Shown here one piece after another: positions 30,293 through 55,093 of a stretch of 64,000 nucleotides of DNA. Both the position numbers and the translations under genes were made by a program. Under the pieces are notes generated by a model, which saw only the letters and a program-made list of their open reading frames with translations, was not told the DNA's origin and searched no databases. Source of the stretch: Minisyncoccota bacterium (GTDB lineage Bacteria; Patescibacteriota; Minisyncoccia; Phycocordibacterales; UBA2100). How positions within the stretch are numbered: the stretch's first letter is position 1; each line of letters starts with the position of its first letter. The stretch covers positions 26,767 through 90,766 of the forward strand of contig JAYWCB010000011.1 of the NCBI GenBank assembly GCA_043780835.1, given 5' to 3'.

Positions 30293-30336
30293 TTTTCCAC
30301 GCGATAAAAATAGTGTGCGTACTCGGGTGATACAAT
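30293..30336 (+). promoter_or_regulatory. Candidate promoter for the FN3-repeat gene: DnaA-box-like TTTTCCACG plus extended -10 TGaTACAAT
   Basis: TTTTCCACG (30293..30301) lies 29 nt upstream of TACAAT (30331..30336), which is preceded by TG. The ATG at 30367 follows. Confidence 0.3.
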
Positions 30337-30366
30337 TTAACGGTGCGGAGTGCACTGTTTTTCGAT

Positions 30367-31806
30367 ATGCAATTCATTTTTCAATCTCGCGCACGTATTG
30401 GTATCGGCGGAATCGCCCTTATTGTGCTGCTTATCGCGCTCCACGCGTATGCGGCGGAAATTTCGAGTGTCAAAATTAGCGACGTAAAGCCCGACGCTGC
30501 GACCGTTTCCTGGACGACAGATAAAAACACCGATGCAACGATTAATTTCGGTTTGGACGAACGGTTCGGCACCGTTCGTGACAGCGCATTCGATAAAAAA
30601 GACCATACCCTCACCATTGATAGTCTCGAGCCGGCAACGACGTATCACTTCCGTGTGGTTTCCACAGATGCTGATGGCAACAAAAGTACCACCGCAGGCT
30701 TCGTGTTCACTACTAAAGATGATCAGAAGAAAATCAAGGAGCGGATCATCAAAGACATCAAAAAGATTACCGATCCGAAGGCTATTATTGAGATCAATGA
30801 TCAGGTCAAAGAGACAGCGGGTGATATTTTGAAACCACCGACGATTCTGGGACTGCCCCGTGTAAACGTAGACCAAACGAAGGCGGAAATTATCTGGACC
30901 ACCGATCGCGATTCGAGCTCGATGGTGTATCTGTCACCCGATAAAGACTACAACGGGGGATCGAGCGATTACACGATTGCGCAGGGCGATCCGAACGATG
31001 CTGTGTCCAAACACACGGTAGAGGTTATCGGACTCGATCCGTCAACCACGTACCACTTCAAAGTGGTCTCGAACGATTCAACGGGACTGACCGGAGAGTC
31101 TGGCGATGACACCTTTAAGACCAAATCCATCCTTCCTTCTGTACGAAATGTAAAAGTGTCTCGTATTCAGCAAACCACGGCCGTGATTTCTTGGGATACA
31201 AGTGGGGTACTCGCACGTGGCATCGTTGAATACACGAATACCCGCACCAAAGTTACGAAAGTTGCGGGAAGCTCTGTGTTTGCGGCACAGCAAAACGTGC
31301 AACTTGCAGATTTGGAGTTTGGCACGCGCTACAGTGCCCTTGTGCGCACGACCAACCAGGATGGCGACAACGCAGAGAGTACGCCGTTCCAGTTCATTAC
31401 GATACGCGACGTGATTGCTCCTGCGATCACCAAGGTGAAGAATGAATCGACACTCTTTCCGGGCGAAGACGTGAAGATCCAAACCATCATTGCGTGGGAG
31501 ACCGATGAGCCTGCCACGTGCCAGGTGTTCTACTCGCAAGGTCTTTCAACAGGCGGTTCCAATGCAGGTGCTGAGTCCACGCCGAAAGAGACAAATCCGC
31601 TCACATCGCACACGCAGGTGATCGTCGGGTTTACCCCGGCAACGGTGTATCAGTTTTGGGTCGTGTGCAACGACGAAGCGCTGAATGAGTCGCGCTCAGA
31701 AGATTTCGTATTAATCACACCGATCAAAGAGAAGAGTATTATCGACATCATTCTTCAAAACTTCCAAGGCACATTCGGGTGGGTCAACAACATCGGCAAG
31801 AAGTAG
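30367..31806 (+). CDS. Secreted protein with four fibronectin type III-like repeats
   Basis: Signal peptide MQFIFQSRARIGIGGIALIVLLIALHAYAA. Repeats match V.WTTD...s.v.yg.....Y......t.Y.fkVvs.D..GN: VSWTTDKNTDATINFG...TTYHFRVVSTDADGN, IIWTTDRDSSSMVYLSP...TTYHFKVVSNDSTG, VISWDTSG...TRYSALVRTTNQDGD, and IIAWETDEPATCQVFYS...VYQFWVVCNDEALN. Confidence 0.75.
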   Translation: MQFIFQSRARIGIGGIALIVLLIALHAYAAEISSVKISDVKPDAATVSWTTDKNTDATINFGLDERFGTVRDSAFDKKDHTLTIDSLEPATTYHFRVVSTDADGNKSTTAGFVFTTKDDQKKIKERIIKDIKKITDPKAIIEINDQVKETAGDILKPPTILGLPRVNVDQTKAEIIWTTDRDSSSMVYLSPDKDYNGGSSDYTIAQGDPNDAVSKHTVEVIGLDPSTTYHFKVVSNDSTGLTGESGDDTFKTKSILPSVRNVKVSRIQQTTAVISWDTSGVLARGIVEYTNTRTKVTKVAGSSVFAAQQNVQLADLEFGTRYSALVRTTNQDGDNAESTPFQFITIRDVIAPAITKVKNESTLFPGEDVKIQTIIAWETDEPATCQVFYSQGLSTGGSNAGAESTPKETNPLTSHTQVIVGFTPATVYQFWVVCNDEALNESRSEDFVLITPIKEKSIIDIILQNFQGTFGWVNNIGKK

Positions 31807-31810
31807 CGAT

Positions 31811-33157
31811 ATGGCAAAAACATCTATACGCACGGAAGGCATGCATATTACCTACAACAAAGGCCAGGTGAATGAATTCAAAGCGCTACAAGACGTCAAT
31901 ATAGAGATCTATCCGCGCGAATACATCATTCTCTTCGGTCCGTCCGGCTGCGGGAAGTCAACACTGTTGTACACAATGCTCGGCGGCGTACCTCCATCGG
32001 ATGGGAAAATGCTTGTGCAGAACGAAGACATTTATGCGTACACTCCGGCGGAGCTCAATCGCTATCAACAAACCACCATCGGCATCGTGTACCAGCAATT
32101 CAATCTTATTGCTTCGTTGAATGTGCTCGATAATGTGGCGCTTCCCATGCTCTTTCTGGGAATCGAGCAGAAAGAACGATGGGCGCGGGCCGCGACACTC
32201 CTGCGCCGCTTTGGCGTGCCTGAGCGTGTGGAAAATAAGTTGCCCGCCCTCATGTCCGGCGGACAGCAGCAACGCGTGGCCGTTGCGCGTGCACTCATCA
32301 ACGACCCGGAAATTCTGCTCGCAGACGAGCCAGTGGGCAACCTCGACTCTATTTCTGCAGAACACGTGATGGACTCCTTTAAGGAAATTAATGAGAAAGA
32401 CCGTAAAACAGTGATACTCGTTACGCACGACGCGAAATATCTTCCGTATGCGCATCGTGTGTTCTATATGCGCGACGGACGATTGCGTCGAATCGTCGCG
32501 AATCCGGGAAAGCAGCAGATTATGCATGTGAAGCCGGGCGAAAACATCGTGACCGAAATCGAACAGCTCGCACGCATGTATCCGTATGCGGAGCCGGTGG
32601 AGCTCAAAGTGAAGAGCGTGGTGAACTTTGTGACGCAATCCATCGGCTTCTCACAGCTTGAGCGTCTTGAGCAAGGAATTCTGTATGTATTGAAGGGAAC
32701 CATGAACGAGCAGATGTTTTCCGAGTTTCTCACGAAGCCGTTCCATCTGGGCGGGGTTGGCATTCACCCCGAAGAAGTTCCTGAAATGTCGCGGCGAGTA
32801 TTTAGTTTGATTCGATACTCAATTGATGTGCAGCGATTCCGACAAGAGGTAAAAAGCGATAACGCGTTTATGCACCAACAGAAATTTGTGGAACGGCTGC
32901 TCACATACTTGAACGAAGAAGTCGGATTTCACATCTCACAAGCCGAATTTCAAATTCTGCGCGAAGCGGTGGCGGATCGCGTGGGGGGAATTACAGATGC
33001 GGATCAGTTTGCGGAGCGATTGATTCTCGCCAAAAATCTTAACGGTGCAGAACTTGAAGAGCGGATCGCGTATCTCATTAGCGTGCATATGGAAAAGCTG
33101 ATTGCGCAGGGCGGCTACATTATTCTTCCAAACGAACTCGAAGGAGGTCACACGTGA
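31811..33157 (+). CDS. ABC transporter ATP-binding protein (MacB/LolD-like) with ~220-aa C-terminal extension of unknown function
   Basis: Walker A GPSGCGKST, Q-loop, ABC signature LSGGQQQRVAVARAL, Walker B ILLADEPVGNLD and H-loop VTHD occupy the first ~225 aa. Residues ~230-448 form a helical extension not typical of MacB/FtsE ATPases. Confidence 0.85.
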   Translation: MAKTSIRTEGMHITYNKGQVNEFKALQDVNIEIYPREYIILFGPSGCGKSTLLYTMLGGVPPSDGKMLVQNEDIYAYTPAELNRYQQTTIGIVYQQFNLIASLNVLDNVALPMLFLGIEQKERWARAATLLRRFGVPERVENKLPALMSGGQQQRVAVARALINDPEILLADEPVGNLDSISAEHVMDSFKEINEKDRKTVILVTHDAKYLPYAHRVFYMRDGRLRRIVANPGKQQIMHVKPGENIVTEIEQLARMYPYAEPVELKVKSVVNFVTQSIGFSQLERLEQGILYVLKGTMNEQMFSEFLTKPFHLGGVGIHPEEVPEMSRRVFSLIRYSIDVQRFRQEVKSDNAFMHQQKFVERLLTYLNEEVGFHISQAEFQILREAVADRVGGITDADQFAERLILAKNLNGAELEERIAYLISVHMEKLIAQGGYIILPNELEGGHT

Positions 33158-34541: not shown

Positions 34542-34586
34542 TTATCCACACGGGGCTAACGTATTGAAAGGCGACAGTGGTACGAT
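34542..34586 (+). promoter_or_regulatory. Candidate promoter: perfect DnaA-box 9-mer TTATCCACA plus extended -10 TGgTACGAT
   Basis: TTATCCACA (34542..34550) is followed 30 nt later by TACGAT (34581..34586), which is preceded by TG. The ATG at 34599 has an AAGG SD. Confidence 0.3.
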
Positions 34587-34598
34587 TTCTTCTAAGGT

Positions 34599-36506
34599 AT
34601 GTCCGAGCAATTTCACCGGAAACTCAGCATGTTCTTGAAAGGGGCGCGAAGCATGGAAGGTAAAATCACGATTTTCACATCGGTGATCGGCTGTTTGGTG
34701 CTTGTGGGCTTCGTTACCATCTTTAATGTGAACGTGCCGCTCGCGACCGCGAGCAACGTTGTGACGTCTGTCACTGTTTTGAACACACCGCCTACATGGA
34801 CGGTCGACGCTCAAGAATCTGCGCAATCGTCAACCTCTACACCGACAAATGCGGGACAGAGTATTACGTTTGTCGCCACCGGCACTGACTCAAGTAACGA
34901 CAACTACTATCTATTGATTTGCAAGAACAGCACCTCACCGACAGCGAATAACGGTACCGCTCCATCGTGCAACGGTGGTGTGACCAACCAGTGGGCGGTC
35001 TCAACTTCTACTACAAGCGGTCTGCAGGCGAGTGCTGCGACGACCACAACGGAGCTTTTTGCAGAGAAAAACGACTGGTGGGCCTGGATTTGCGATAACA
35101 ACGCAACGCTTTCGCGCTGCAATCTTGTTTCAAAAACAGGAAGCGGTTTGACGGCGTCTCCATTCGTAGTCAACCATCCGCCGGTTTTTATATCGGTCGC
35201 CAATAACAGTCCGCAAAATCCCGGCAGCAACGTTACCTGGACGACGGTCGCGTCTGACAGTGACACCATACGAGGCAGTGACACAGTGATTGTTGTTTTA
35301 TGTAAAACGTCGGGATCATTTAATGGTACTACGTGTACCACAGGAGGCGAATATGCTACGTCCACTTTTGCAGCATCCAACCCCTCAACATCTTCTCCAA
35401 TTGTCATACCGACGCAGGATCGTCTCTATAACGCGTTCGCGTACGTAGCGGATAACCTCGGACTCGCTGCCACCTCTACTGCGCAGGGAACGAATTCGTT
35501 CTATCAAGTATCAAATGTAGCCCCGACGATCGTAGCGTCGTCGATCGCTTTTATAGATTACAACGCAACGACGAGCACCGGTAGCCTGACGCTCACGGTA
35601 GCTTCTGCGACGTCGGGTCCGTTTAAGGTTGTATTCACTGCTGTGGATAACAATGGCTGTCAGAATGCATCGTCCACAAATGAAATTGTTTCGAATATAA
35701 TCAATGTCTATCGCTCTGGCATTTCGTCCACCTCGTGCCAGACTTCGGGTCAATATAATTCCAATAATTGCTATTCCGCGGCATCGGGTAATTTCTCGCC
35801 ATTTTTCAATTGTACGCAAGATGGCGGGAGTTGTAGCGGAGCAACAGACTCGGATGCAACGTTTACCTGCACATTCTCCCTGTGGTTTAACGCCGATCCG
35901 ACAGACGCGGCGACACAATTCACTGCCGAATCATGGCTTGCAACGGTCCGAGCGACTGACGACAACGCGACTACGAGTGCACTCACTGAAAAGACGGTCG
36001 GCACCACAGATGTCATCAGTTTCCTTGCGTTTAATGTTTCTACTTCCACGGTCGCGTATGGAGCATTGCAGCCTGGTGATACAACTACGCCACTCGTTGC
36101 AAATACAGACATGCAGGCTATTGGTAACATCGGACTTGATGAAGATCTTTATGGATCGACGATGTGCACAACATGGGTAGCAGGTGGTGGTGGTACTGCA
36201 CCGGACAACTGCGACATAGGAGGCGCGAACGCTGCTACGAAGATTCCAGTGACGCAACAGGTGGTTGCTACGGGTACCATCACCTACACGTTGGCATCAG
36301 CATCAACCACGCTTACGGGAGCACTGCCTGCATCTACGTCACCACGAGCCATACTCCTCAACGTGCCTAAGACTACATCAACGAGTACCATCCAAACTCG
36401 AAATACGTTCTGGGGTATTGCTATTCCGTCCACGATCACGCAATCAGGCAGCTATCAGGGACAAAACACCATTACCGCAAAAAAGAGTTCTTCTGCAAAC
36501 TGGTAA
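34599..36506 (+). CDS. Secreted Thr/Ser-rich surface protein sharing a C-terminal domain with the giant protein
   Basis: Signal anchor (ITIFTSVIGCLVLVGFVTIF). The C-terminal ~200 aa (ESWLATVRATDDN...FLAFNVSTSTVAYGALQPGDTT...TFWGIAIPSTITQSGSYQGQNTITA) is collinear with the giant protein C-terminus (ENWLASLRIQDS...FGLTVNTGAIDFGALSVGTDTG...LFWGINVPIGTTAELHQGTNTFIAV). Confidence 0.6.
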   Translation: MSEQFHRKLSMFLKGARSMEGKITIFTSVIGCLVLVGFVTIFNVNVPLATASNVVTSVTVLNTPPTWTVDAQESAQSSTSTPTNAGQSITFVATGTDSSNDNYYLLICKNSTSPTANNGTAPSCNGGVTNQWAVSTSTTSGLQASAATTTTELFAEKNDWWAWICDNNATLSRCNLVSKTGSGLTASPFVVNHPPVFISVANNSPQNPGSNVTWTTVASDSDTIRGSDTVIVVLCKTSGSFNGTTCTTGGEYATSTFAASNPSTSSPIVIPTQDRLYNAFAYVADNLGLAATSTAQGTNSFYQVSNVAPTIVASSIAFIDYNATTSTGSLTLTVASATSGPFKVVFTAVDNNGCQNASSTNEIVSNIINVYRSGISSTSCQTSGQYNSNNCYSAASGNFSPFFNCTQDGGSCSGATDSDATFTCTFSLWFNADPTDAATQFTAESWLATVRATDDNATTSALTEKTVGTTDVISFLAFNVSTSTVAYGALQPGDTTTPLVANTDMQAIGNIGLDEDLYGSTMCTTWVAGGGGTAPDNCDIGGANAATKIPVTQQVVATGTITYTLASASTTLTGALPASTSPRAILLNVPKTTSTSTIQTRNTFWGIAIPSTITQSGSYQGQNTITAKKSSSANW

Positions 36507-42233: not shown

Positions 42234-42400
42234 GAGCAATGCATATTCAGTGTATAGGTGATCTGCGCCCCCACAAGTAAAAAATGTGCTCAAGAGTGCA
42301 AAGGGATTCGTGCACTCATTTGATTGATACCCAAAAACTCACGAAAGTTGTCCACACCGAAAAATAGGCTAAAAACCTAGGGATTATACAATTGCTCTAT

Positions 42401-42845: not shown

Positions 42846-42849
42846 AATC

Positions 42850-45800
42850 ATGAACACACACAGTCAATCATGGGTACGCATGATTCGGGAGACAACGCGA
42901 CTGGCCGCGATTCTTTCATGTACGGTATTTGTGCTCGGATCGTTTGCTCCGGTGGCGCTCGCTGCAACCGGTGTACCACGAATCATGAACTACCAGGGAC
43001 GTCTCATGAATGCGGGTGGATCATTGCTTGGTGGTGCAGGAACTGATTACTGCGTACGTTTTTCACTGTATGACAATGCGTCGGTTGGATCAGGGGCAAA
43101 ATTGTGGCCGTCAACCGCACCGTCAACCATGACTGTTGTTGTAAAAAACGGCGTGTTCAACGCGGGCGTCGGTGATACCAATGCCGGCGGCGACACGCTC
43201 AACTTTAATTTTGAAGACACCGATACCGCATATCTCAATGTGGAGGTTGCAACAAAAGTTGGTCCGACCTGTGCTCCGGGCGATGGTGTAGAAGTTTTTG
43301 AAAACCTTTCGCCGCGACAGCGCGTAACCGCCTCGGGATATGCAATTAATTCCGCCACCCTCAACGGAAAGAGCGGGAGTTACTATCTCGCAAATTCCTA
43401 TGCAACCACGAGCGCCGCATACAACCTCAACACGTACGACAAAGGATATTTCTTTTCCACCACGTCGGTTACCTATTGGGACACCACACAGTTTCGTTGG
43501 GCAACAACGAGTTCTGATGCATGGTTTGCAACGAAAACAACAGACGGCCTAACCCAAGGTTCAACAAATCTTTATTACTCGAACAATCTCGTCAACGGTT
43601 TCATTGCAGGATCTTCTACTATCCCAAAGTCTTATACAAACAATGCATATACCGGTACGAACTCGTTTACCGGTGATGTAACACTCGCAAATGCGACGAC
43701 TTCTAATTTCAATATCACGAACACGATCTCCGGAGCCGGACTCATATCGTGCTCGAGTTCGACAGATAAAGTGATATGGAATGCAAGCACTCGTCAGTTT
43801 GGCTGCGGGGCAGACGCAGGTGCGGGCGGCGGAATTACCGCACTCGGTGCGCAGTATTCGGTATTCCAAACGGGCGCATCGCAAACATTTGCAACCTCAT
43901 CTGACACCAATATCGGAATCACCATAACCTCATCGGGAGACACGCACACGTTTGCGCCAAAGTGGTTCGGATCACTTGCTGCCGGTCGCGGCGGTACCGG
44001 TATTACATCGATTTCTCAAAACGGGATATTGATCGGCGGAGCAGGTAACACGTGGGGACAAGTCGCAACATCATCGCTTGGGCTACCCACCTATGGTGAT
44101 CTCGGGGCATACCTAGGTCTCGCTGCGTGGTATGCAACGACGACTGACGCACTTGCCGAAGGCTCAAACAATAAATACTTTACGACCAACCGTGTTGCCG
44201 GCGTGCTCGCAGGAACCACCACTGATGCAATTGCTGAAGGTGCAACAAACAAGTACTATACGGACCCACGCGTGCAAACCTACCTCAATGGTGTGTCAAA
44301 AGGGTTTTTCTTCTCCACCACATCGACCGATTTCTGGAAAACCCAAAACAATTTCTTCTCGACCACGTCCGCGTCGCACTTTTCTTCGCTTGGCCTCGCG
44401 TTTTCGACAACCTCAAGTGCATTCTTCCTGTCGCAAAATCAGGGCGCTGCGTTTTCTACCACATCTACCGACTACTATGTGGGAGCGACAACATCGATTC
44501 CTAAAACATACACAAACAATACCTATAGCGGCACCAATTCATTCCAAAATGTTTCCGCAACGGGTGCAACGACCACATCGTCGTACACGGCAACTGCAAG
44601 TTCTACGAATCTCTTCTCGAATCTCGCAACGATCGGATCGCTGATTTCCGGCGCAATTACCGGCAACACACTGACTGCAACCAACGCGACCACCACGGTA
44701 CTCTCTGCAGGCACCGCATCGACTTCGAATCTCACGATCTCGAACATTCAGAACTCGATGCTATACACCGGCCCGGGTGGCGTTGTAACTGCGGCTAGTA
44801 TTTCAGGCCCGCTTTCATTTAGCGCAGGTGCGCTTTCAATTTCGCAGGCAAACGCGTCAACAAATGGATACCTTTCATCCGGTGATTGGAATGCGTTCAA
44901 TAGCCGACTCTCCACGTCTTCGTTGGGGACGATCGACAAGGGTTATTTCTTCTCCACAACCTCAACCGACTTCTGGAAAACGCAGAATAATTTCTTCTCC
45001 ACCACGTCCGCGTCGCATTTTTCTTCGCTTGGCCTCGCGTTCTCCACAACCTCTAGCGCATTCTTCCTGTCGCAAAATCAGGGCGCCGCGTTTTCTACGA
45101 CATCCGCGTCGCACTTTGCGTCTGTCGGTCTCGCACACTCAACGACATCAGATGCGTATTTCCTTTCACAAAATCAGGGGAGCGCGTACTCGACCACATC
45201 AGAGAACTACTATCAGCACTCGTCATCAACTGTTGCAACAACCTATAAAAGTAATACGTTCACCGGTACGAACGGTTTCCAGAATATTTCGGCAACGGGT
45301 GCAACAACCACATCGCTTTCAACCGGAATCGCTTCCACGACAAACCTCACGATCTCCGCGTTGCAAAATTCGATGCTCTACACGGGACCGGGCGGCATCG
45401 TGTCGGCTGCGAGTATCACAGGGCCGCTTTTGTTTAGCGCCGGCACGCTTTCGATGCAGCAATCAGGCGGCACGCTGAGCGGGTATCTGTCTTCGTCGGA
45501 TTGGAACTCGTTCAACAGTCGACTCTCTACCTCGACACTCGGGCTTATTGATAAAGGATTCTTTTATTCAACGACATCTGAAGATGCATACATTGGTGCA
45601 ACCACATCAATACCGAAAACATATACCGCAAACACATTTATTGCACTGAACAGCTTTGCAAACATAACCGCAACCGGTGCTACAACCACGTCGCTCTTTT
45701 CCACGACCGCATCGTCCACAAATATATTCGCAAACGCGGCTCGCTTCGGTTCGCTCGGCGCGTTCTCGCTCGTCGGATCAGTCGCAGCTGCAGCGAACAG

Positions 45801-47701: not shown

Positions 47702-48601
47702 ATGAAAAAAATATATAACACACCGGTCTTTCTCCTCCTCGTATCGATGGTTTTTGCACCGATTGCGTCGGCCCAAACAATGCAGGAAACATCTGACAAT
47801 GCGTCGCGCATTACACAAAGCAGCACATCGTCACCGACTACCGATGAAATGAAAGTCGTGGCACTGACGAGTGGGACCGACTCGTCTCAGGAGGGTACAA
47901 CAACCGTGTCAGTCTCGATTGCCGGCGTACAAGACGCAACAACATCGCAGCAGACCGCAGCAGCATCTGCCTTAGAGACAACCGCAGACCCTCAGGCAAC
48001 ATCTACCCAGGAAAGTCAGACGATCGTAGACGTACATATTGCGACGACTGACGCGTCAACGAGTATCATCGTAATTGAGCGTGAACCGAGTGCGCAGTCC
48101 GAGGTCGTCGCGAGCATTGACCCACCGACGCTCAATCTTGTAGCAGCGGCCCTTCCAAGGGAAGATGTGCATGATACAGCGTCGTCTACCGAATTCGCAG
48201 TCGACATTGATCCGTCGTACGTGTTTGAACTTTCGGGTAAAAAAATTGCGACGAAACGAACTGATCCGAAACATGGTAATGCTGTAGAAGTGCTCACGGC
48301 TCAGACTGAGGCAATGGTTGATAGCGTCTCAGGCTTAGTGAAAATTTCCGGGGTATGCACGGGCACATATTACGTGGTGCTCTTATTCAAGAATCAGACC
48401 GACTACGAAACTGACCCGCGATCGTTCATAGTCAATCGGGCCTATCCGTGTGAACACGGTGCATACTCCTATTCAATCGACAGGCTTCCGGCTACGCTAC
48501 CGAACGGTACGTACTACCTAATGGTTGGGGATCAGAGCGAAAACGGACCGTGGACGCCGGCAACCGGCCTCACGGAAGTCTCTATTAATAGAAGCAATTA
48601 G
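47702..48601 (+). CDS. Secreted Thr/Ser-rich protein (signal peptide), unknown function
   Basis: Signal peptide MKKIYNTPVFLLLVSMVFAPIASA. A T/S/Q-rich low-complexity N-terminal half and a folded C-terminal roughly 130 aa (Cys pair, YYVVLLFKNQ). Confidence 0.55.
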   Translation: MKKIYNTPVFLLLVSMVFAPIASAQTMQETSDNASRITQSSTSSPTTDEMKVVALTSGTDSSQEGTTTVSVSIAGVQDATTSQQTAAASALETTADPQATSTQESQTIVDVHIATTDASTSIIVIEREPSAQSEVVASIDPPTLNLVAAALPREDVHDTASSTEFAVDIDPSYVFELSGKKIATKRTDPKHGNAVEVLTAQTEAMVDSVSGLVKISGVCTGTYYVVLLFKNQTDYETDPRSFIVNRAYPCEHGAYSYSIDRLPATLPNGTYYLMVGDQSENGPWTPATGLTEVSINRSN

Positions 48602-48608
48602 GACCGCT

Positions 48609-49013
48609 ATGACGCACACCATCATCAAAAGTCTTGTGAAAGGAATCATATACGCGCTAATCGCCGTATGTGCCGTATGGTTCGTGACGACGCATACGAG
48701 CATCGCCGGCGGCGCGACCGATTCGTTTCCGACAGTCCCATCCGCAAAATGGCAGGCTGTATTTCTAACAGGCGGACAAGTGTATTTCGGAAAACTCTCC
48801 GACGTGGGGCATGGCTACGTGTCACTGAGTGATGTCTACTACCTCAAATCGGTGAGCGAGCTTGAGCAGAAAAATTTGAATCTCGTAAAACTCGGCGGCG
48901 AACTGCATGGTCCGGAGGACACGATCTTTATCCGTAAGGAAAGCATTTCGTTTTGGGAAAACATGAAAGACACCTCGCGCGTCGTGCAATCGATCGCGGG
49001 CTCCAAACAATAA
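48609..49013 (+). CDS. Hypothetical membrane-anchored small protein
   Basis: Trimmed to MTHTIIKSLVKGIIYALIAVCAVWFV (TM), then a roughly 100-aa domain. Confidence 0.45.
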   Translation: MTHTIIKSLVKGIIYALIAVCAVWFVTTHTSIAGGATDSFPTVPSAKWQAVFLTGGQVYFGKLSDVGHGYVSLSDVYYLKSVSELEQKNLNLVKLGGELHGPEDTIFIRKESISFWENMKDTSRVVQSIAGSKQ

Positions 49014-49015
49014 AC

Positions 49016-49486
49016 ATGACCATTGACCTGCGCAAAGCGAATCATCAAGCAGCGCAGCACGCAGTACGTGTGCCTGATGCACCGCGCGCGCAGGTGGAGG
49101 CGCATATTCCACGCACGCGCGTTGCACCCAGGCGCGCGCAAGAGCGTGCGGTAATGGCAATTGCTGCAGGAGCGGCACTCATCATCGTACTAATTCTATT
49201 GGTTTTCGGCGTCACAAAGGTGTGGGATCGTTTTTTTGGCGGCACTGATGCAGAAGTCCGCTCGCTCGTCTCGAGCGTTGGTCATCACATGCTTTTGCCC
49301 ACAGACGAAACACCCACGCTCGCAACTGTAAGCGACATGCACGCCCTCGAGGGTCAGGAATTCTTCAAAAACGCAAAAGAAGGCGACAAGGTGCTTATGT
49401 ATCTGCGCACACATCGCGCGATCATTTACCGCCCGTCTATTGATCGCATCATCGAAGTCGGCCCCATAACGGGCAAGGCACAATAA
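49016..49486 (+). CDS. Hypothetical membrane-anchored small protein
   Basis: Trimmed to MTIDLRKANHQ. A basic N-terminus, then TM (MAIAAGAALIIVLILLVFGV), then a roughly 80-aa domain. Confidence 0.45.
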   Translation: MTIDLRKANHQAAQHAVRVPDAPRAQVEAHIPRTRVAPRRAQERAVMAIAAGAALIIVLILLVFGVTKVWDRFFGGTDAEVRSLVSSVGHHMLLPTDETPTLATVSDMHALEGQEFFKNAKEGDKVLMYLRTHRAIIYRPSIDRIIEVGPITGKAQ

Positions 49487-49488
49487 CT

Positions 49489-50826
49489 ATGCACATCTCG
49501 CAGAACATAAAACGAATCGTGCTTGGCGCATGTAGTGCGCTCATGATCGTTTCTATTTCCGCATCGTATGTATTTGCGCAGGAGCTCACGAGTTCGAGTT
49601 TTAGCCTCAACAACAACGGTTTTACCGCATGGGGCGGGTATTCTACAACGAGCAATTTTTCTTCGTTTGGCAGCGAGGCGCAGCCGGGCAGCGGGGAATC
49701 ATCGAGTGCGAGTTTCTCGCTTGCGAGCGGGTATCTCTATCCAGTCGATACCAGCCCGCTCGCGACGCAGAATTGGAAATGGTTTGATGATTCAACGAAT
49801 TTCACACCGACGATTGCGCTCGCCGGCGAAAACGTGTCACCGTCAAATGTTGGATTCGATGATCCCTTGAAGCTTCGCATTACGGTGAAGGATATTGGCG
49901 GGTCCGGTGTAACAGGACTCAAGCTTCGCTTGCAATACGCAACGTCGTCCGACTTTTCCGCCGGCGCAATCTTTGTTGCTGAGCAGGGGCAGTGTAATTT
50001 GACAATCTGGTGCTACGCGGATGGCGCTGGAGTTGATAATACTGTCATTAGCGATACTGTTTTGTCTGATCCCGATGCGTGTTCCGGAGGATTGGGTACC
50101 GGATGCGGCACCTACAATGAATCCGGCACCACCACATCAACTTTTTATCACTCCCCGGGAAAAAAGACCGAATACGAGTTCACGTTGAAACAAATTCTGG
50201 GCGTTCAGAGTACGGTGTATTTCTTTCGTCTGGTAGACGCGAGCACCGGTATTCCCGTGCCGCTCAACACGGGGGCCACGTATCCGAGTCTGATGATTAA
50301 CGGTGCGTCGTTAACATTTTCTATTGGCGGACTGACTTCCGGCACCTCAACCGAAGGCGTGACGACTGACATTGCAACGTCGCCCACGACTATTAGTTTT
50401 GGAACGTTGCTTCTCAACACACCAAGAATCGCCGCGCATCGATTGACGGTGACGACAAACGCAACGTCGGGGTACAAAATTTATACCTATCAGCGACAAG
50501 GGCTTTTGAACCAAAGCGCGCGAGAGCTTCCACCCGTAAATACCACTAATAGCGCGCCGTCCGGCTGGGCGTCTGCGTGCACGTCGACCTCGACCGGATG
50601 CTACGGTTATCACTCCGGTCAGGACGTGCTAGAAGGAGGCTCAACGCGCTTTGCAGCGGATGACAGCTATGCGCAATTTACGTCGTCGCCCGACGAAGTC
50701 GCGTTTAGTGCAGGTCCCGCAACAAATGCAATGACCGACATGGTCTATAAAATTGAAGCGAAAGATTTACAAGACTCTGGCGTGTACGAAAGCACGATTG
50801 TCTATATCGCAACCCCCGTTTTCTAA
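49489..50826 (+). CDS. Secreted protein, family A (paralog of 53804..54955); WxL-like C-terminal region (tentative)
   Basis: Signal peptide MHISQNIKRIVLGACSALMIVSISASYVFA. The C-terminal part has APSGWASACT and the terminal YKIEAKDLQDSGVYESTIVYIATPVF, which parallels YKVEIGSLQEAGSDYTNILTYVATPIF in the paralog. Confidence 0.6.
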   Translation: MHISQNIKRIVLGACSALMIVSISASYVFAQELTSSSFSLNNNGFTAWGGYSTTSNFSSFGSEAQPGSGESSSASFSLASGYLYPVDTSPLATQNWKWFDDSTNFTPTIALAGENVSPSNVGFDDPLKLRITVKDIGGSGVTGLKLRLQYATSSDFSAGAIFVAEQGQCNLTIWCYADGAGVDNTVISDTVLSDPDACSGGLGTGCGTYNESGTTTSTFYHSPGKKTEYEFTLKQILGVQSTVYFFRLVDASTGIPVPLNTGATYPSLMINGASLTFSIGGLTSGTSTEGVTTDIATSPTTISFGTLLLNTPRIAAHRLTVTTNATSGYKIYTYQRQGLLNQSARELPPVNTTNSAPSGWASACTSTSTGCYGYHSGQDVLEGGSTRFAADDSYAQFTSSPDEVAFSAGPATNAMTDMVYKIEAKDLQDSGVYESTIVYIATPVF

Positions 50827-50858
50827 ACTGTGCATAAAAATACAATACTTTTCTTGCT

Positions 50859-52214
50859 ATGCTTGCGATATTCGTCTCTATGACATTGAAGAAAACGATA
50901 CTCCCGTTTTTTGTGTTGTGTATTCTTGCTGCGGGGCTTCTTCCATTCGTCGTGCGGGCGGACTCTGATCTCACCGTTTTGCCCATTGTTGTTGATGAAA
51001 AAGCAAAAGCACGCGATATCTTGAAAGAATCGGTCACGATCACAAATAATAGTGCGCGCGTGCTCCAAATATATCCGTCGGTCAACGACGTAAAACCGCA
51101 GGAAGGCCAAAGGGCATTTATTGAGGCACAAAGCGGCACCGAACGCTCTGACTCATTGGCCAATTGGATAGAAATCTCTCGCGGAGTCATTGAATTGAAG
51201 CCGAAAGAGTCAAAAGAGATTCCGTTTGTCATTCGTGTGAATCTCAATGCGGTCGCAGGCACCTATCACGCTGACGTTTCTTTCTATGAAGGCGGTAACC
51301 GTGAGGACGCCGAGAAAACGCACCCGCTCTCAGTCGTGACCGTAAACACCGAGGTGCAGGCGAATATAAAAGAGTCAATGCAGTTGAATAAATTTGTTAC
51401 GGATAGTTTTTTCTTCTCCGGAGATGACGTGTTGTTCAACTATCAGCTAGAGAATATCGGTAACCAGGAATTGAAACCGAAAGGGGAGATTCGTATTTAT
51501 GATCGCAAGGGCCACGAGGTTGCGACGGTGCCGGTGAACCCGGACGGCAAAAGCTTTACACCCGATCAGGCTGCACAGCTTGCAAGTGCATGGAGCGCAG
51601 CCAGAGGGTTCGGTAAATTCAAGGCGTTTCTCAATATAGATTACGGCAACGGTAACGGCTCGCTGCAGGATACTGTCTTTTTCTGGATTATTCCATGGCA
51701 GCAGTTGCTCGCAATTGTGGTGGTGAGCATCATTGGGATCATTGTGTCTGCGTTGTATTTCCACCGATGGCTTGAACAGCGTCACATGCAGCGCTTTGCG
51801 CTCGCAACCGGAATGCCAATGGCCGGAGCGGGTGTTGCAGCCATGCAAGCACCTCCTGGGATGCTCACACAGAAAAGACCCCCGCACATGACGACCGTCA
51901 TGCCGGTAATTCCAAAACAGGAGAAAAAGAGCTTCTTTTCACGATTTCGTCGCGCGAATAAGGCGCCCATCGTTGCAAGTGTGCAAAACACTTCGCCAAT
52001 TCCCACCGTGGTGCCGGCAGCTGCGCTGCTCACACCACCTGTGCATAATGCCGATCAATCACAAATTATTGTCCACGGGGAGGAGTCGGCATCTGCTCCG
52101 GTGCAGACGCTCGCGCCACAATCCAATCGCACCATCAATCTGTCGTCGACCAACATGGGCACGTCGCCGCAAAAAAACCCGGGGCGCGTGATAAATCTAA
52201 AAAACGGCTCATGA
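50859..52214 (+). CDS. Secreted protein, family B (DUF916-like architecture): signal peptide, beta-rich domain, C-terminal TM and long cytoplasmic tail
   Basis: Signal peptide (ILPFFVLCILAAGLLPFVVRA). The domain (LTVLPIVVDEKAKARDILKESVTITNNSARVLQIYPSVNDV...SLANWIEISRGVIELKPKESKEIPFVIRVNLNAVAGTYHADVSF) is followed by TM (LLAIVVVSIIGIIVSALYF) and a roughly 140-aa tail. Confidence 0.6.
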   Translation: MLAIFVSMTLKKTILPFFVLCILAAGLLPFVVRADSDLTVLPIVVDEKAKARDILKESVTITNNSARVLQIYPSVNDVKPQEGQRAFIEAQSGTERSDSLANWIEISRGVIELKPKESKEIPFVIRVNLNAVAGTYHADVSFYEGGNREDAEKTHPLSVVTVNTEVQANIKESMQLNKFVTDSFFFSGDDVLFNYQLENIGNQELKPKGEIRIYDRKGHEVATVPVNPDGKSFTPDQAAQLASAWSAARGFGKFKAFLNIDYGNGNGSLQDTVFFWIIPWQQLLAIVVVSIIGIIVSALYFHRWLEQRHMQRFALATGMPMAGAGVAAMQAPPGMLTQKRPPHMTTVMPVIPKQEKKSFFSRFRRANKAPIVASVQNTSPIPTVVPAAALLTPPVHNADQSQIIVHGEESASAPVQTLAPQSNRTINLSSTNMGTSPQKNPGRVINLKNGS

Positions 52215-53536
52215 TGCACAGTTTTCGCACGGTCTTTTTTACTGCACTCATCCTGTGCACATGGCTTTTCGGCATCACGAGTGTGTCCGCCCAGGAATCA
52301 CTCTCTGTTACGGTCACGCCGCCACTGTTTCAGCTCAGTATCGGTCCCGGTGAATCATGGACGAGCACGATCAAAGTTATCAACAATAATTCGTATGACG
52401 TACAGTATGCGCCGCAGGTCGTCGATTTTGAAGCGCAAGGGGAGACCGGCCAGGGAAAGTTTGTGCCGCTCATTAATGCGTTCGGAGGTGGCGAACAAAG
52501 CAGTAATTCACTCGGGAGCTGGATAGAAATTTCCAAAGATCCGGTGCTTATACGTTCTGGACAGAGCGCGCAACTCAATTTTACGGTCCATGTACCGCAA
52601 AACGCCGAACCGGGCGGGCATTACGCTGCGATCATGGTCGGACCCCACGAAGCAGATACCGCACAAGGATCGCACATGAAAATATCGAGCTATGTTACGT
52701 CGCTTATCATGGTGCGAATCAAGGGGGATATTGTGGAAAGCGGGCGTATTCGTGAATTCACGACTGATAGATCGCTCTATCAGAAGCCGGAAGCGCAGTT
52801 TGTTCTGCGATTCGAAAACACCGGCAATACGCACTTGCGCCCACAGGGTCTTATTACGCTTCACAACATGTGGGGAAAAGAGCGCGGTCAAGTGCTCATT
52901 AATGAGAAGAGTAATTTCGGCAACGTGTTACCGCACTCAATTCGCAAGTTCGAATTCACGTGGAATGGTGAAGACAGCCTATTTGATATCGGTTTATATA
53001 GTGCGGTCGTTACGCTCAACTATGGCGACGATGCGAAGCAAAATGCTTCCGCAACAAGTTATTTTTGGGTGGTCCCGGTGGTGCCGGTGACTATCACGCT
53101 CATCATAGTGCTTAGTATTGTGCTTATTCTAATGTGGTTTATACGACGGTATGTACGCCGCGCGCTCTCACTCGAGCATCTTCATGTCGCGGCTGGCGCA
53201 CACCCGAATGTGCCGGATCGCCAGGAACCGCCTATGATTGAACACGTCTCTACGCTTCGCGCGCTCGTGCAGCCCATAAAAGACGGTGTTGTTGACCTTC
53301 GAAGCGTCGGCACTGTTATTGAACAGAATGGGGTAGTCGCGACACCTACATATATTCGTCCGCTTACATTTGGCGGTTTTGTTCGCAAATACCGACTTTT
53401 CTTTGCTTTTTTACTGGTGCTCGCGGTACTTCTCGTTGGTATATCGCTCTATTTCAAGGCAGTGCTCGTGTCGCACCGTGATTTCCAAATCAAAGCAATC
53501 GCACCCGCGAGCAGCTCATCTGCCTCAGTTCGCTAG
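52211..53536 (+). CDS. Secreted protein, family B paralog (DUF916-like architecture)
   Basis: Signal peptide. The domain (LSVTVTPPLFQLSIGPGESWTSTIKVINNNSYDVQYAPQVVDF...GSWIEISKDPVLIRSGQSAQLNFTVHVPQNAEPGGHYAAIMVGP) is collinear with 50859 and 55094. TM VVPVTITLIIVLSIVLILMWF. Its start overlaps the preceding stop. Confidence 0.6.
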   Translation: MMHSFRTVFFTALILCTWLFGITSVSAQESLSVTVTPPLFQLSIGPGESWTSTIKVINNNSYDVQYAPQVVDFEAQGETGQGKFVPLINAFGGGEQSSNSLGSWIEISKDPVLIRSGQSAQLNFTVHVPQNAEPGGHYAAIMVGPHEADTAQGSHMKISSYVTSLIMVRIKGDIVESGRIREFTTDRSLYQKPEAQFVLRFENTGNTHLRPQGLITLHNMWGKERGQVLINEKSNFGNVLPHSIRKFEFTWNGEDSLFDIGLYSAVVTLNYGDDAKQNASATSYFWVVPVVPVTITLIIVLSIVLILMWFIRRYVRRALSLEHLHVAAGAHPNVPDRQEPPMIEHVSTLRALVQPIKDGVVDLRSVGTVIEQNGVVATPTYIRPLTFGGFVRKYRLFFAFLLVLAVLLVGISLYFKAVLVSHRDFQIKAIAPASSSSASVR

Positions 53537-53602
53537 TTTTCCACAGGATATCAACCGGGTTTTCCACCGACATATCCTCTGATCGAGACCGTTATCCACA
53601 TG
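53537..53602 (+). promoter_or_regulatory. Cluster of three DnaA-box-like 9-mers (TTTTCCACA, TTTTCCACC, perfect TTATCCACA) with an embedded inverted repeat
   Basis: TTTTCCACA at 53537..53545, TTTTCCACC at 53560..53568 and TTATCCACA at 53592..53600. AGGATAT and ATATCCT (53547..53553 and 53572..53578) form a 7-bp inverted repeat around the second box. A TATACT -10-like hexamer lies at 53643..53648 upstream of the gene at 53804. Confidence 0.35.
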
Positions 53603-53803
53603 GTTGTGCTTGATATCAACTGATTTGTCAACAGTATGCCGTATACTTTACCCATGCGAGTTTATTCGGCGCCGTACGTTTCTAGCTGCTTTGGTCGAGC
53701 AATAGCAGGTGGATGCGTATTTTCTCTCTAGGCGCAGAACAGATCGCTCATTAGAAGAAACTATTAGTACGCTTAAAAACAAACGACAGTTCAATTTATT
53801 TAT

Positions 53804-54955
53804 ATGAACGTATTCGAACAAGCAAAGAAAAATCCGATCGCATCGTTCTTGTCGTCGCCGATCGCGTTGGTTCTCATTATATCGACCCTCTTGTGGGCGA
53901 CAGGACTCCCGCTCTTGGTTTCGCGAGCCGACGCTGCGCAGCTCACGTTAGTGAGTGACACACTGACCGACTCTAATCCGAGTACCGCGAATCGCAACGT
54001 TATCAAATTCACATCAGCCACATCATCAATCGCAGGTCAGACTATAGCGATAGTGTGGGATCCAGTAGGAAGCGCGTTCTCACAAGTTGCACTTACCGCA
54101 ACGACGACGCAGATAACAGTCACCGGCATGACGCTCGTGACTACATGCGGTGGTGCTGCCGATGAAGTCACGGTACAGCAGGTATACACAGCGGGTAGTG
54201 AAGGTGTCGTATTTACGGTGTGTGCTACTGACACGGTGACCCCTGGAGCAAAGATCATTACCCTGGGAACATCCACGCCCTTCATTTCGAATCCTGCTGC
54301 CGCAGGTTCGTATCGGATTACTGTCACCGGCACAAATGGTGATACGGGAGAAGCGCGGGTCGCAATACTTCCACATGTAACCGTAACCGCTGCAGTGGAC
54401 ACCACGTTCACCTTTACTGTTGCAGGTCTCGCGACCTCAACGACGGTGAACGGTGATACGTTGACGGGTTCTACAACGGCCACGGTGATTGCATTCGGAA
54501 CGCTTGCTCCGACGGTTGCAAAGATAATGGGTCAACAGTTAAGCGTAACCACAAACGCATCAAACGGATTCTCCGTTACCGTTGTTGAGAATCAAAACCT
54601 CTTATCGGCAACGGGAGCAGACATTGACCTCTTCCAGGATGGCGCTGCTACCGCAGTTCCGATCGCCTGGGCGTCTCCCACAAACACACTTGCGGCAGGT
54701 GAAGCGAGTTATGGTCACATAGGTGTGACAAGCGAAGACACTACATTGTCCGCTGGCGCTGAATTCTCGGGCACAAAATATGCTGGTAACTTCAATACCG
54801 CGCGACAAGTGTTCTACAGCACAACGCCGGCCGATGGTACAACTGCCGGTGTAGGCACAACGAAAGTTGCGTACAAGGTAGAAATCGGTTCACTGCAGGA
54901 AGCAGGTTCTGATTACACCAACATCCTCACGTACGTTGCAACGCCGATCTTCTAA
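53804..54955 (+). CDS. Secreted protein, family A paralog; WxL-like C-terminal region (tentative)
   Basis: A signal anchor (IASFLSSPIALVLIISTLLWA), a Thr-rich beta domain, a C-terminal roughly 180 aa with PIAWASPTNTL, and the terminal YTNILTYVATPIF. Confidence 0.6.
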   Translation: MNVFEQAKKNPIASFLSSPIALVLIISTLLWATGLPLLVSRADAAQLTLVSDTLTDSNPSTANRNVIKFTSATSSIAGQTIAIVWDPVGSAFSQVALTATTTQITVTGMTLVTTCGGAADEVTVQQVYTAGSEGVVFTVCATDTVTPGAKIITLGTSTPFISNPAAAGSYRITVTGTNGDTGEARVAILPHVTVTAAVDTTFTFTVAGLATSTTVNGDTLTGSTTATVIAFGTLAPTVAKIMGQQLSVTTNASNGFSVTVVENQNLLSATGADIDLFQDGAATAVPIAWASPTNTLAAGEASYGHIGVTSEDTTLSAGAEFSGTKYAGNFNTARQVFYSTTPADGTTAGVGTTKVAYKVEIGSLQEAGSDYTNILTYVATPIF

Positions 54956-54975
54956 GCTCGAAAAACAGTCAAACA

Positions 54976-55003
54976 AAAACCCGCGAACTACGCGGGTTTT
55001 TGT
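54976..55003 (+). terminator. Rho-independent terminator
   Basis: AAAAACCCGCGAACTACGCGGGTTTTTG is a perfect 7-bp GC stem with a T-run. Confidence 0.65.
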
Positions 55004-55093
55004 TTGGAATTTTATCCAGAGTAGCGCTGCAAGCCGATGGCAAGCCGATGGCAAGCCGTGGTACAGTTCACGCATAATAATAGCCGCATTGAT

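Follow-up and report, generated by a model that had tools for sequence, protein, structure and literature searches.

DnaA-box-type sites at conserved promoters of a cell-surface-gene island in a CPR bacterium

In the window analysed here, that is, the whole 64-kb stretch of DNA, which derives from a candidate-phyla-radiation (CPR) bacterium and carries a cell-surface-gene island, the sites at positions 34542, 42348, 50829 and 53592 are, judged by their sequence, conserved operator-type sites of the DnaA-box kind, and the site at 9347 is probably another. Dozens of distant relatives retain them at corresponding positions, which indicates a real regulatory site, and neither a chance occurrence nor a replication origin. 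The promoter-associated boxes may well constitute a small regulon, whose reader would have the DnaA domain-IV fold and would most probably be the initiator DnaA itself; we favour this reading with some reserve. The predicted members are the two-Ig-domain protein encoded at 53804, the 34599 protein, the 42459 HTH-TM/giant-protein unit, the 50859 DUF916-like protein and hsp20. What is established is that the sites exist and are conserved, that -10-like hexamers lie at set distances from them, and that their degeneracy is DnaA-box-like.

Box copies in the window and in relatives

The window contains four copies of the perfect 9-mer TTATCCACA, against 0.40 expected, and a count of at least four was reached in 0 of 100 shuffles. 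Two copies are intergenic and lie on the plus strand (34542-34550 and 53592-53600). Both had been correctly placed by the first-pass annotation, as had TTTTCCACA at 53537; its count of two perfect copies missed those on the minus strand at 35642 (inside the ORF 34599-36506) and 61948 (inside prfB), which are unconserved. Exact TTATNCACA is found at seven sites, three of them within the approximately 4.5 kb (7%) of intergenic DNA. Since 1107 distinct 9-mers occur at least four times in the window, the copy count by itself is weak evidence, and the window alone provides moderate evidence for more than chance.

Several other entries of the earlier site list did not hold. Specifically, 53560 (TTTTCCACC) and 30293 (TTTTCCACG), given as one-mismatch variants, both show two mismatches to TTATCCACA, and TTATCCAGA starts at 55012, not at 55011. 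Of the six sites on the list, 30293 and 55012 prove to be T-tails of terminator-like hairpins (30266-30285 and a strong one at 54969-55007, respectively), and relatives do not retain either as a box; the near-copies at 32227 and 62585 are likewise unconserved. In addition, the list overlooked the conserved intergenic sites at 42348 (TTGTCCACA), 50829 (TGTGCATAA) and 9347 (CTATCCACA). Its core observation stands.

The relatives' DNA sampled is centred on the island and comprises about 98 related loci (L numbers below). Over 826 kb from relatives, the density of TTATNCACA is 1.15/kb in intergenic and 0.034/kb in coding DNA, against a random expectation of 0.031. An unbiased word count upstream of 53804 homologues returned TTATCCACA as the top 9-mer (42 of 69 non-redundant regions), and a box with at most one mismatch is present at the orthologous place in 62 of the 69 upstream regions, compared with 8.5% of shuffles. 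Perfect boxes reach 1.56/kb upstream of the 383-aa family to which the 53804 protein belongs, versus 0.020/kb elsewhere (788 kb), and in most 20-kb loci of relatives the anchor is the sole perfect box. Apart from the conserved sites, the intergenic regions are unalignable between relatives, and conservation reaches relatives whose proteins share only about 40% identity.

Across relatives the evidence against chance is overwhelming. The view that the boxes are functionless chance 9-mers in intergenic DNA can appeal to the many recurrent 9-mers of the window and to the unconserved perfect and near-perfect copies listed above, but it is refuted for 34542, 42348, 50829, 53592 and 9347 by their orthologous conservation, spacing included, amid otherwise unalignable DNA, and we attach practically no probability to it. 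The claimed recurrence of the motif upstream of secreted- and surface-protein genes is real, being kept in orthologous promoters of deeply diverged relatives.

Architecture of the box-bearing promoters

Measured to -10 hexamers assigned by consensus alone, the distance from box to -10 is gene-specific and fixed in evolution: N41 at 53592, N30 at 34542, N28 at 42348, N3 at 50829 and N42 at 9347. A recognisable -35 is absent from the box-bearing promoters.

Upstream of gene 53804, the plus-strand anchor box TTATCCACA (53592..53600) is preceded, in the same orientation, by the accessory boxes TTTTCCACA (53537..53545, 55 bp upstream of the anchor) and TTTTCCACC (53560..53568, two mismatches, 32 bp upstream). 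L005 carries TTTTCCACT and TTATCCACG at the corresponding spacings, and the 53537 box is found in the closest lineage only. The stretch toward the -10 is occupied by two weak box-like 9-mers on the plus strand (53613..53633; offsets from the anchor +21 for ATATCAACT and +33 for TTGTCAACA), which take in the clade-specific block TTGATATCA. The -10-like hexamer TATACT (53642..53647, plus strand) follows 41 nt past the anchor. Further downstream, a 47-nt block of the 5' leader (53674..53720, plus strand) is nearly invariant in the alignment of the window with L005, L011 and L070; it contains a hairpin, CTGCW/WGCAG, with one compensatory change, and an Rfam search of the block gave no match. The gene itself (53804..54955, plus strand) encodes a secreted protein of 383 aa that has an N-terminal signal/TM helix, two Ig-like beta-sandwich domains and at least 633 homologues; its AlphaFold model (pLDDT 82) matched in Foldseek the MSCRAMM adhesins ClfB, SdrE and SdrG, and also BslA and TasA.

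Of the 34 lineages in the set of 53804-type promoters, 27 have a TATAAT-like hexamer (TATAAT/TATACT) 39-42 nt past the box, and no conserved -35 was found between box and -10. A covariation-supported leader RNA of a distant clade begins about 7 nt past the assigned -10. Box-likeness 3' of the anchors peaks at +10, +21 and +32 (34 lineages). Explicit tandem boxes with 2-nt gaps are present in L061, L071, L072, L042, L039 and L034, and many lineages have a single box only.

The box TTATCCACA at 34542..34550 (plus strand) precedes the gene at 34599, which encodes a 635-aa secreted protein, and the -10-like TACGAT (34581..34586, plus strand) begins exactly 30 nt past it. L094, L095 and L096 each carry one perfect box at the same place with N30 spacing to TACGAT/TACCAT, which gives four lineages with the window, while eight further, more distant loci show the reversed TGTG[C/T]ATAA there, often in tandem. 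At 42348..42356 (plus strand), the variant TTGTCCACA lies 28 nt upstream of TATACA (42385-42390) and precedes a small HTH_17+TM gene (42459-42845) and a giant surface-protein gene (42751-47694). L094 and L095 have the same variant at identical spacing; in L096 it precedes the homologous gene, the N28-TATACA spacing not being evident. In L020, L085, L091, L048 and L055, homologous HTH-TM genes are preceded by perfect boxes. The minus-strand box TTATGCACA (50829..50837; TGTGCATAA as read on the plus strand) lies 3 nt before TACAAT (50841-50846) and 30 nt ahead of the ATG of the DUF916-like paralogue 50859-52214; TGTG[C/T]ATAA occupies the equivalent place in L005, L008, L011, L070 and L028.

Outside this group, CTATCCACA (9347..9355, plus strand) lies 42 nt upstream of TATACT (9398-9403), with hsp20 (9424-9900) downstream. 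The hsp20 upstream region reads CTATCCACA-N42-TATAAT in L097 and ATATCCACA-N29-TACAAT in L098, the remainder of the intergenic region having diverged in both. A promoter of like design (11477..11531, plus strand), with the degenerate box TTGTCCAGT, GGCTTGAAATCA and TAAAAT at N40, precedes a 5884-aa gene; it is kept in L097, and its block GGCTTGAWATCA is shared with the 53804-type promoters of L005, L011 and L070.

Origin or titration locus as an alternative

The first-pass annotation had also suggested a non-canonical origin-like cluster at 53537..53602. Taken as the whole 53537-53633 cluster, a replication origin or origin-like DnaA assembly site, or, more softly, a datA/DBC-like titration locus without a transcriptional role, would accommodate the three to five same-orientation box-like 9-mers at near-integral helical turns (23, 32, 21 and 12 bp), the raw cumulative GC-skew minimum at about 53-55 kb and the fact that B. 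subtilis DnaA-box clusters outside oriC titrate DnaA (PMC3245932). However, the skew minimum is due to two giant genes, per-gene GC3 skew has no step at 53.6 kb, and the flanking genes on both sides are co-directional. The region is 42% GC and has no AT-rich DNA-unwinding element (DUE), the most AT-rich 20-mer lying 150 bp off and adjoining the RBS. Most relatives keep one box at the place equivalent to 53592, the box is coupled to the -10 at fixed spacing and to the downstream gene, and similar sites occur at no fewer than four further promoters of the window. A dnaA gene is absent from the 64-kb window and from the approximately 98 related loci (none within 10 kb). Single boxes in relatives, together with the missing unwinding element, GC3-skew step and dnaA, largely refute an oriC at 53537..53602, and we consider the origin or titration reading very improbable. 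Of the earlier interpretation, the promoter element is supported and the origin-like cluster is not.

Candidate readers and proposed mechanism

In the upstream regions of the 53804 family, mismatches cluster at box position 5 (13 of 32) and position 3 (6 of 32), which are the degenerate positions of the classical TTWTNCACA, and at orthologous sites C, G, A and T are all represented at position 5. Against the DnaA reading, position 7 is changed from A to C in three lineages (TTATCCCCA), and this is not known as a classical tolerated variant. The site is asymmetric and occurs in both orientations, as would be expected for monomeric contact by domain IV. The extended consensus, (A)G-TTATCCACA-G, has the flanks of R1 and R4 of E. 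coli oriC (NC_000913). Sequence, degeneracy profile and flanks thus make DnaA acting as a transcription factor, already suggested by the first-pass annotation, the leading reading; we assume canonical-box use by the host's DnaA from the general conservation of domain IV.

Alternatively, as the first-pass annotation also allowed with its different island-specific regulator, the 9-mer could be bound as an operator by a protein that has no relation to DnaA, most plausibly the HTH_17+TM protein (42459-42845); the likeness of the 9-mer to a DnaA box would then be coincidental. The gene lies inside the island and its product scores 18-21 bits against Pfam HTH_17 (curated cut-off 27; E=0.0005-0.0035); some relatives carry it joined to an extracellular protein of about 790 aa, an arrangement like that of ToxR. 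Its own promoter is boxed in the window, in L094-096 and in the five loci with perfect boxes named above, which fits a local autoregulator, and nearly all conserved sites lie in or beside the island. This reading, however, requires the 9/9 match to the DnaA consensus, the degenerate positions and the R1/R4 flanks all to be coincidence, and the perfect boxes would be bound regardless by whatever canonical DnaA the cell has. It must also contend with the conserved site upstream of hsp20, a cytoplasmic chaperone gene, and with conserved palindromes of the HTH-TM leader itself, ATCTCGA-N-TCGAGAT (42403-42455), which have the look of an RNA hairpin or of a dimeric operator in its own right. We regard it as unlikely, but as a contender of some substance.

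A stand-alone DnaA domain-IV paralogue without the AAA+ module, acting as a small dedicated transcription factor, would suit the many one-box lineages. Such a protein exists in L081, where a 187-aa product matches Pfam Bac_DnaA_C (54.7 bits, E=1e-14); its gene lies between a trxB-like gene and ftsZ, 6.4 kb from the island, and has a perfect TTATCCACA upstream, which, like the site at hsp20, also adds to the breadth of the proposed regulon. It is present in one of about 98 loci, however, and a stand-alone Bac_DnaA_C is absent from the 64-kb window; moreover, the tandem 11-bp arrays of many lineages better suit an oligomerising full-length DnaA. As the general reader of the boxes, this paralogue appears quite improbable.

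With the initiator DnaA as the preferred reader, we infer the binder's identity, the sign of regulation and a link to replication status along the following lines. The high-affinity anchor box would be occupied first; in several lineages, weaker same-orientation boxes about 11 bp apart would reach toward the -10, and oligomerisation of ATP-DnaA from the anchor would set promoter activity. Because the promoters lack a -35, activation via RNA polymerase recruitment is slightly favoured over occlusion; at the 50829 promoter, where the box falls within the spacer, repression would be more likely. In vivo, the DnaA of E. coli favours two sites lying close together (PMC11317965), and the single box of many lineages counts against the DnaA reading.

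DnaA activates or represses many genes via promoter boxes in E. coli (dnaA, nrdAB, mioC, rpoH), B. subtilis (dnaA-dnaN, sda, ywlC, yydA, vpr) and Caulobacter (gcrA, ftsZ, podJ) (PMC8203912). As in those promoters, canonical 9-mer boxes of either orientation are located here, by sequence, within promoters or a short way 5' of them, and the replication initiator is proposed to double as activator or repressor. A heat-shock parallel may be drawn between the repression of rpoH by E. coli DnaA and the box upstream of hsp20. Unlike the model promoters, those of the island often have a single anchor box at a rigid N30 or N40 from the -10 and no -35, and their box is conserved among homologues with as little as about 40% protein identity, the DnaA link being here a proposed one. 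The targets also differ, being secreted- and surface-protein genes of a CPR bacterium; to our knowledge, surface-protein genes are unprecedented as DnaA targets.

In E. coli oriC, R1/R4 anchor arrays of low-affinity DnaA sites. The island resembles it in the identical flanks of the anchor, G-TTATCCACA-G, and, in several lineages, in the weaker same-orientation boxes that follow the anchor with 2-nt gaps and an 11-bp period. In contrast to oriC, the array ends at a promoter -10 and not at a DUE, and there is one array in one orientation, with no DUE and no skew switch. Like the B. subtilis DBCs (PMC3245932) and E. coli datA/DARS, the island boxes lie outside oriC, in intergenic DNA beside putatively regulated genes; unlike DBCs and datA, which have many boxes and serve titration or nucleotide exchange, they are mostly single and promoter-locked. 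With at least five strong boxes, the island could account for a considerable fraction of the chromosomal DnaA sites of a genome of about 1 Mb.

The gene content recalls the WxL/Csc clusters (DUF916/WxLIP) of Firmicutes, but the host belongs to the CPR, a WxL domain was not detected, and no description of DnaA-box control of WxL clusters was found in the literature searched. The likeness consists of several DUF916-like membrane proteins together with secreted beta-sandwich proteins, and the paralogue at 55037-56158 matches Pfam WxLIP_PGBD (E=8e-9).

Box copies in the window and in related loci

The perfect DnaA-box 9-mer, TTATCCACA, occurs four times in the window, at 34542 and 53592 on the plus strand and at 35642 and 61948 on the minus strand, against a mean of 0.40 copies in dinucleotide shuffles, none of 100 of which reached four. 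The first-pass annotation had reported two perfect copies; the two plus-strand ones were indeed found, while the total had to be raised to four, as it had overlooked the minus-strand copies inside the ORF 34599-36506 (35642) and inside prfB (61948). Degenerate forms are also in excess: TTWTCCACA was observed seven times against about one expected, and for TTWTNCACA there were 12 copies where 4.9 were expected. Intergenic DNA makes up roughly 7% of the window and holds three of the seven exact TTATNCACA sites. Nevertheless, four copies of TTATCCACA are unremarkable by themselves, because 1107 different 9-mers reach the same count, and the window alone therefore offers moderate support only.

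Some of the near-copies originally listed did not survive inspection. Specifically, 53560 (TTTTCCACC) and 30293 (TTTTCCACG), described as one-mismatch variants, each carry two mismatches, and the near-copy placed at 55011, TTATCCAGA, starts at 55012. Both 30293 and 55012 coincide with the T-tail of a terminator-like hairpin (30266-30285 and 54969-55007, respectively, the latter with a 17-bp stem); neither these two sites nor 35642 and 61948 were found to be conserved in the relatives' loci.

The decisive evidence for the putative sites is comparative. Orthologous loci were gathered from genomes, through exact-protein look-ups and, via the family alignment, from metagenomes. Around gene 53804, which encodes a 383-aa secreted protein, synteny is kept, while the intergenic DNA cannot be aligned between relatives; since the orthologous intergenic alignment is uninformative except for the box, we argue that the box itself is under selection. 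Ten related loci (L001-L010) carry a plus-strand TTATCCACA in the intergenic region upstream of the 53804 orthologue, as the only perfect box of each 20-kb locus, and three more (L011-L013) show the one-mismatch TTATCCCCA at that position instead.

In an unbiased word count, TTATCCACA was the commonest 9-mer, present in 42 of 69 non-redundant upstream regions of 53804 orthologues, and the best site has at most one mismatch in 62 of these 69 regions, compared with 8.5% of shuffled regions. The density of perfect boxes is 1.56 per kb upstream of 53804 orthologues versus 0.020 per kb in the other 757 kb. Across all loci, TTATNCACA is 34-fold denser in intergenic than in coding DNA, and its coding density equals the random expectation. 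A repeat, a mobile element or an uptake sequence was also considered and rejected, as the flanks are not conserved and the coding density is that expected at random.

Spacing of the conserved boxes to -10-like hexamers

At the 53804 promoter, on the plus strand, the anchor box (53592-53600) is followed by a 41-nt spacer and by the hexamer TATACT (53642-53647). Plus-oriented boxes have a TATAAT/TATACT-type hexamer 39-42 nt downstream in 27 of 34 lineages, and no conserved -35 element is present between box and -10. In a scan with the sigma-70 consensus, promoter-like sites were no commoner than in shuffles and none coincided with the boxes; the -10 hexamers were therefore assigned from comparative spacing.

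In many lineages the interval between box and -10 holds further degenerate boxes of the same orientation, separated by 2-nt gaps. In L061 the array reads TTATCCACA-gc-TATTCACA-gt-TTGTCCAC-tc-TTTTTCCACA-ggcagg-TTATAAT, and similar arrays are present in L071, L072, L042, L039 and L034. On average over the 34 lineages, box-likeness is highest at +10, +21 and +32. The window's anchor at 53592 has weak boxes at +21 and +33, together with upstream accessory boxes at -32 and -55, which it shares at identical spacing with L005. Other arrangements were also seen: some clades carry a reversed box, TGTGGATAA, 29-32 nt from the -10 and accompanied by a TTGnnn -35-like element, and in a distant clade TGTGTATAA precedes TACAAT by 27 nt.

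A second conserved site is the perfect box at 34542, upstream of the gene for a 635-aa secreted protein (34599). Three closer relatives, fetched via 34599 homologues (L094-L096), each have one perfect plus-strand box, and in the window as well as in these relatives the box is followed, after exactly 30 nt, by TACGAT/TACCAT upstream of the 34599 homologue. In eight distant loci the reversed form TGTG[C/T]ATAA, often as a tandem pair, lies 25-27 nt upstream of the -10. The possibility that 34599 and 53804 are paralogues with a duplicated promoter was tested, and they are not paralogues.

Three more conserved sites had been missed by the first-pass annotation. The box at 42348 (TTGTCCACA) is followed after 28 nt by TATACA and precedes a small gene with an HTH_17 domain and a TM helix as well as a 1647-aa gene; it recurs in L094-L096, with the 28-nt spacing kept in L094 and L095, and perfect boxes are found before homologous genes in five more loci. 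The box at 50829 (TTATGCACA/TGTGCATAA) has TACAAT 3 nt and the ATG of 50859 30 nt downstream, and is kept in L005, L008, L011, L070 and L028. Finally, the box at 9347 (CTATCCACA), 42 nt before TATACT and upstream of hsp20, is matched in two relatives by CTATCCACA-N42-TATAAT (L097) and ATATCCACA-N29-TACAAT (L098).

A role of the box as an alternative -35 element was rejected because the spacing depends on the gene (3, 21-22, 27-32 or 39-42 nt) and both orientations occur. The fixed spacing of the boxes to -10-like hexamers is positional evidence for a possible control of the adjacent genes by DnaA. As to the sign of such control, the -35-less design together with an anchor near -55 leans slightly towards activation, and the box lying inside the spacer at 50829 towards repression there.

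The promoter of the 5884-aa gene (11477-11531) repeats the 53804-type design with a degenerate box, TTGTCCAGT, a block, GGCTTGAAATCA, and TAAAAT at a 40-nt spacer, and is conserved in L097; the block corresponds to GGCTTGATATCA at the 53804-type promoters of L005, L011 and L070. Downstream of the 53804 promoter, a 47-nt block of the 5'-leader (53674-53720) is near-invariant in the window, L005, L011 and L070, while the proteins downstream of it are just 62-65% identical. A hairpin in this block, CTGCW/WGCAG, shows one compensatory change. The leaders of 53804-family genes, this block included, have no counterpart in Rfam.

In the distant clade, genes of the 383-aa family are preceded by a leader RNA of about 230 nt, located between -10 and ATG (L064:9785-10015; also in L062, L063, L075, L078, L080, L082, L087, L088, L090 and L093). 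It has a conserved multi-stem fold with 42 pairs, 25 of them with compensatory double changes, and invariant single-stranded blocks (GGAGGTAT, GTGGAGACC and CTAATACAACGTAGA). It has no match in Rfam, its motif is absent from the window, and we regard it as a candidate new cis-regulatory RNA. Covariation support is strong and the RNA starts about 7 nt after TACAAT, a position which therefore lends independent support to the promoter assignment.

Origin, titration and the candidate reader of the boxes

The alternative that the boxes at 53537-53602 form an origin-like cluster, also raised in the first-pass annotation, was rejected on box number, GC content, skew, gene direction and the search for dnaA. 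Three recognisable boxes are present in the window and in L005, while only one is found at the orthologous position in L001, L003, L008, L014 and many others. The intergenic region (42% GC versus 51% for the window) contains no AT-rich DNA-unwinding element, its sole AT-rich stretch (53750) adjoining the RBS of 53804. The per-gene GC3 skew is about zero on both sides of 53.6 kb, with no step there; the minimum of the raw cumulative skew near this point stems from two giant genes with GC3 skews of -0.13 and -0.15. The flanking genes all lie on the plus strand, with no switch of orientation at 53.6 kb. A tblastn search with a DnaA query, run to look for linkage to origin-proximal genes, detected nothing in the window or L001-L093, its approximate query making this a weak test for a very divergent DnaA. 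As for a titration site of the datA/DBC type, up to five box-like 9-mers were counted at 53537-53633 and four-box tandems in some relatives; all clusters are locked to a -10, and in many lineages there is a single box.

The signature of the sites points to a reader of the DnaA type. The relaxed consensus TTWTNCACA is matched at all five conserved sites, by perfect boxes at 34542 and 53592 and by variants at 50829, 42348 and 9347. At orthologous sites, 19 of the 32 mismatches fall at positions 5 (13) and 3 (6), versus 7 expected if they were uniform. The extended consensus is A(-1) G(0) TTATCCACA G(+10), with flanks identical to those of the high-affinity boxes of E. coli oriC (NC_000913), where R1 is G-box-G and R4 AG-box-G. 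The site is asymmetric and used in both orientations, and tandem arrays with an 11-bp period occur in many lineages. At box-bearing promoters, DnaA has been documented as an activator and as a repressor (PMC8203912), and in B. subtilis non-origin box clusters adjoin regulated genes (PMC3245932). E. coli DnaA is reported to prefer paired sites in vivo (PMC11317965), whereas many lineages here have a single box. For Saccharibacteria and Patescibacteria, the searchable literature yielded no work on DnaA boxes.

Of the interpretations originally offered, DnaA acting as a transcription factor on surface genes is the best supported. Judged from sequence, a reader of the DnaA type is probable, and we incline, with less assurance, towards full-length DnaA. 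That a stand-alone paralogue of domain IV is the sole reader seems improbable: a 187-aa protein of this kind (Pfam Bac_DnaA_C, E=1e-14) is encoded at L081:13479-14138, between trxB-like and ftsZ/ftsA genes and with a perfect TTATCCACA upstream of its own gene, but it was found in this one relative. A regulator unrelated to DnaA is unlikely, although somewhat less so. The island's own HTH_17 membrane protein is an alternative candidate for this role, and four mismatches at position 7 (TTATCCCCA) are not in line with DnaA-box degeneracy; the distribution of the other mismatches and the oriC-like flanks argue for DnaA.

Promoters controlled by DnaA boxes are already known; what would be new here is a conserved regulon of surface genes and hsp20 in the candidate phyla radiation (CPR), with a fixed-spacing, -35-less design. 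CPR bacteria have tiny genomes, few regulators (very few transcription factors among them) and almost no mapped promoters, so that their gene regulation is almost uncharted. Tentatively, DnaA or a stand-alone domain-IV offshoot might be the master regulator of the surface/attachment island and hsp20 in Saccharibacteria-like CPR, through single high-affinity boxes replacing the -35. If so, the synthesis of surface fibres or adhesins would be tied to replication and cell-cycle state, and the island in turn would be a major chromosomal sink for DnaA. With DnaA as the reader, this would be the first DnaA regulon beyond the classical model phyla and a direct link from replication initiation to the cell surface. 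The analysis also provides a cis-element of phylum-scale conservation with a defined promoter design (box, fixed spacer and -10, without a -35), a concrete candidate regulon of surface proteins, which probably mediate the epibiotic lifestyle, and alignments that can serve directly as positive controls when promoters are predicted in CPR genomes.

Gene content of the island and the 53804 protein

By Pfam, the window is a chromosomal segment with, in order, ligA, gatA, lepB, hsp20, the surface-gene stretch, prfB, ftsE and ftsX, and nearly every gene lies on the plus strand. Among genome records, the closest are MAGs carrying the label Candidatus Saccharibacteria, and other homologues are labelled Parcubacteria or Paceibacterota, which places the organism in the CPR/Patescibacteria. 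The stretch of secreted/surface-protein genes, about 48 kb between hsp20 and prfB, encodes a 5884-aa and a 1647-aa ORF, FN3, cohesin, dockerin and Big-domain proteins, a MacB-type ABC pair and four DUF916/WxLIP-like membrane proteins. The last (starting at 49489, 50859, 52211 and 55037) belong to a conserved CPR gene array at 47702-56557, which recalls the Firmicute WxL/Csc surface clusters and also includes the two-Ig-domain secreted protein, a 131-aa TM protein, an FGE-sulfatase-like protein, a dockerin protein and a redoxin.

The family of the 383-aa protein (53804-54955) has more than 633 members. The protein was modelled with confidence (pLDDT 82) as two Ig-like beta-sandwich domains preceded by a signal/TM helix, and Foldseek matched it to the two-domain MSCRAMM adhesins ClfB, SdrE and SdrG, as well as to BslA and TasA. 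The protein is probably an abundant surface, fibre or adhesin subunit.

Searches of the island ORFs against Pfam and NCBIfam for regulator domains yielded just a weak HTH_17 match and a sub-threshold anti-sigma match. The former belongs to the HTH-TM protein (42459-42845), in which an HTH_17-like domain (ISLREAAAIAGYTPDYVGQLIRSGKIPGKQV) at the N-terminus precedes a TM helix; L048 and L055 encode this module as a fusion with a surface protein of about 790 aa, in a ToxR-like design. In all lineages seen, two conserved palindromes (ATCTCGA-N-TCGAGAT) in the leader of this gene (42403-42455) immediately precede its ATG. The anti-sigma match (NCBIfam, E=3e-4, 20.7 bits against a cut-off of 100) lies in a 177-aa ORF (48953-49486) and could hint at sigma/anti-sigma control inside the island.

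Finally, the prfB ORF as mechanically called (61046-62026, with a TTG start) overlaps the tRNA-Thr gene at 61031-61106, and the true start must therefore lie further downstream. The gene normally carries a programmed frameshift; it is called at 294-302 aa in relatives versus 326 aa here.
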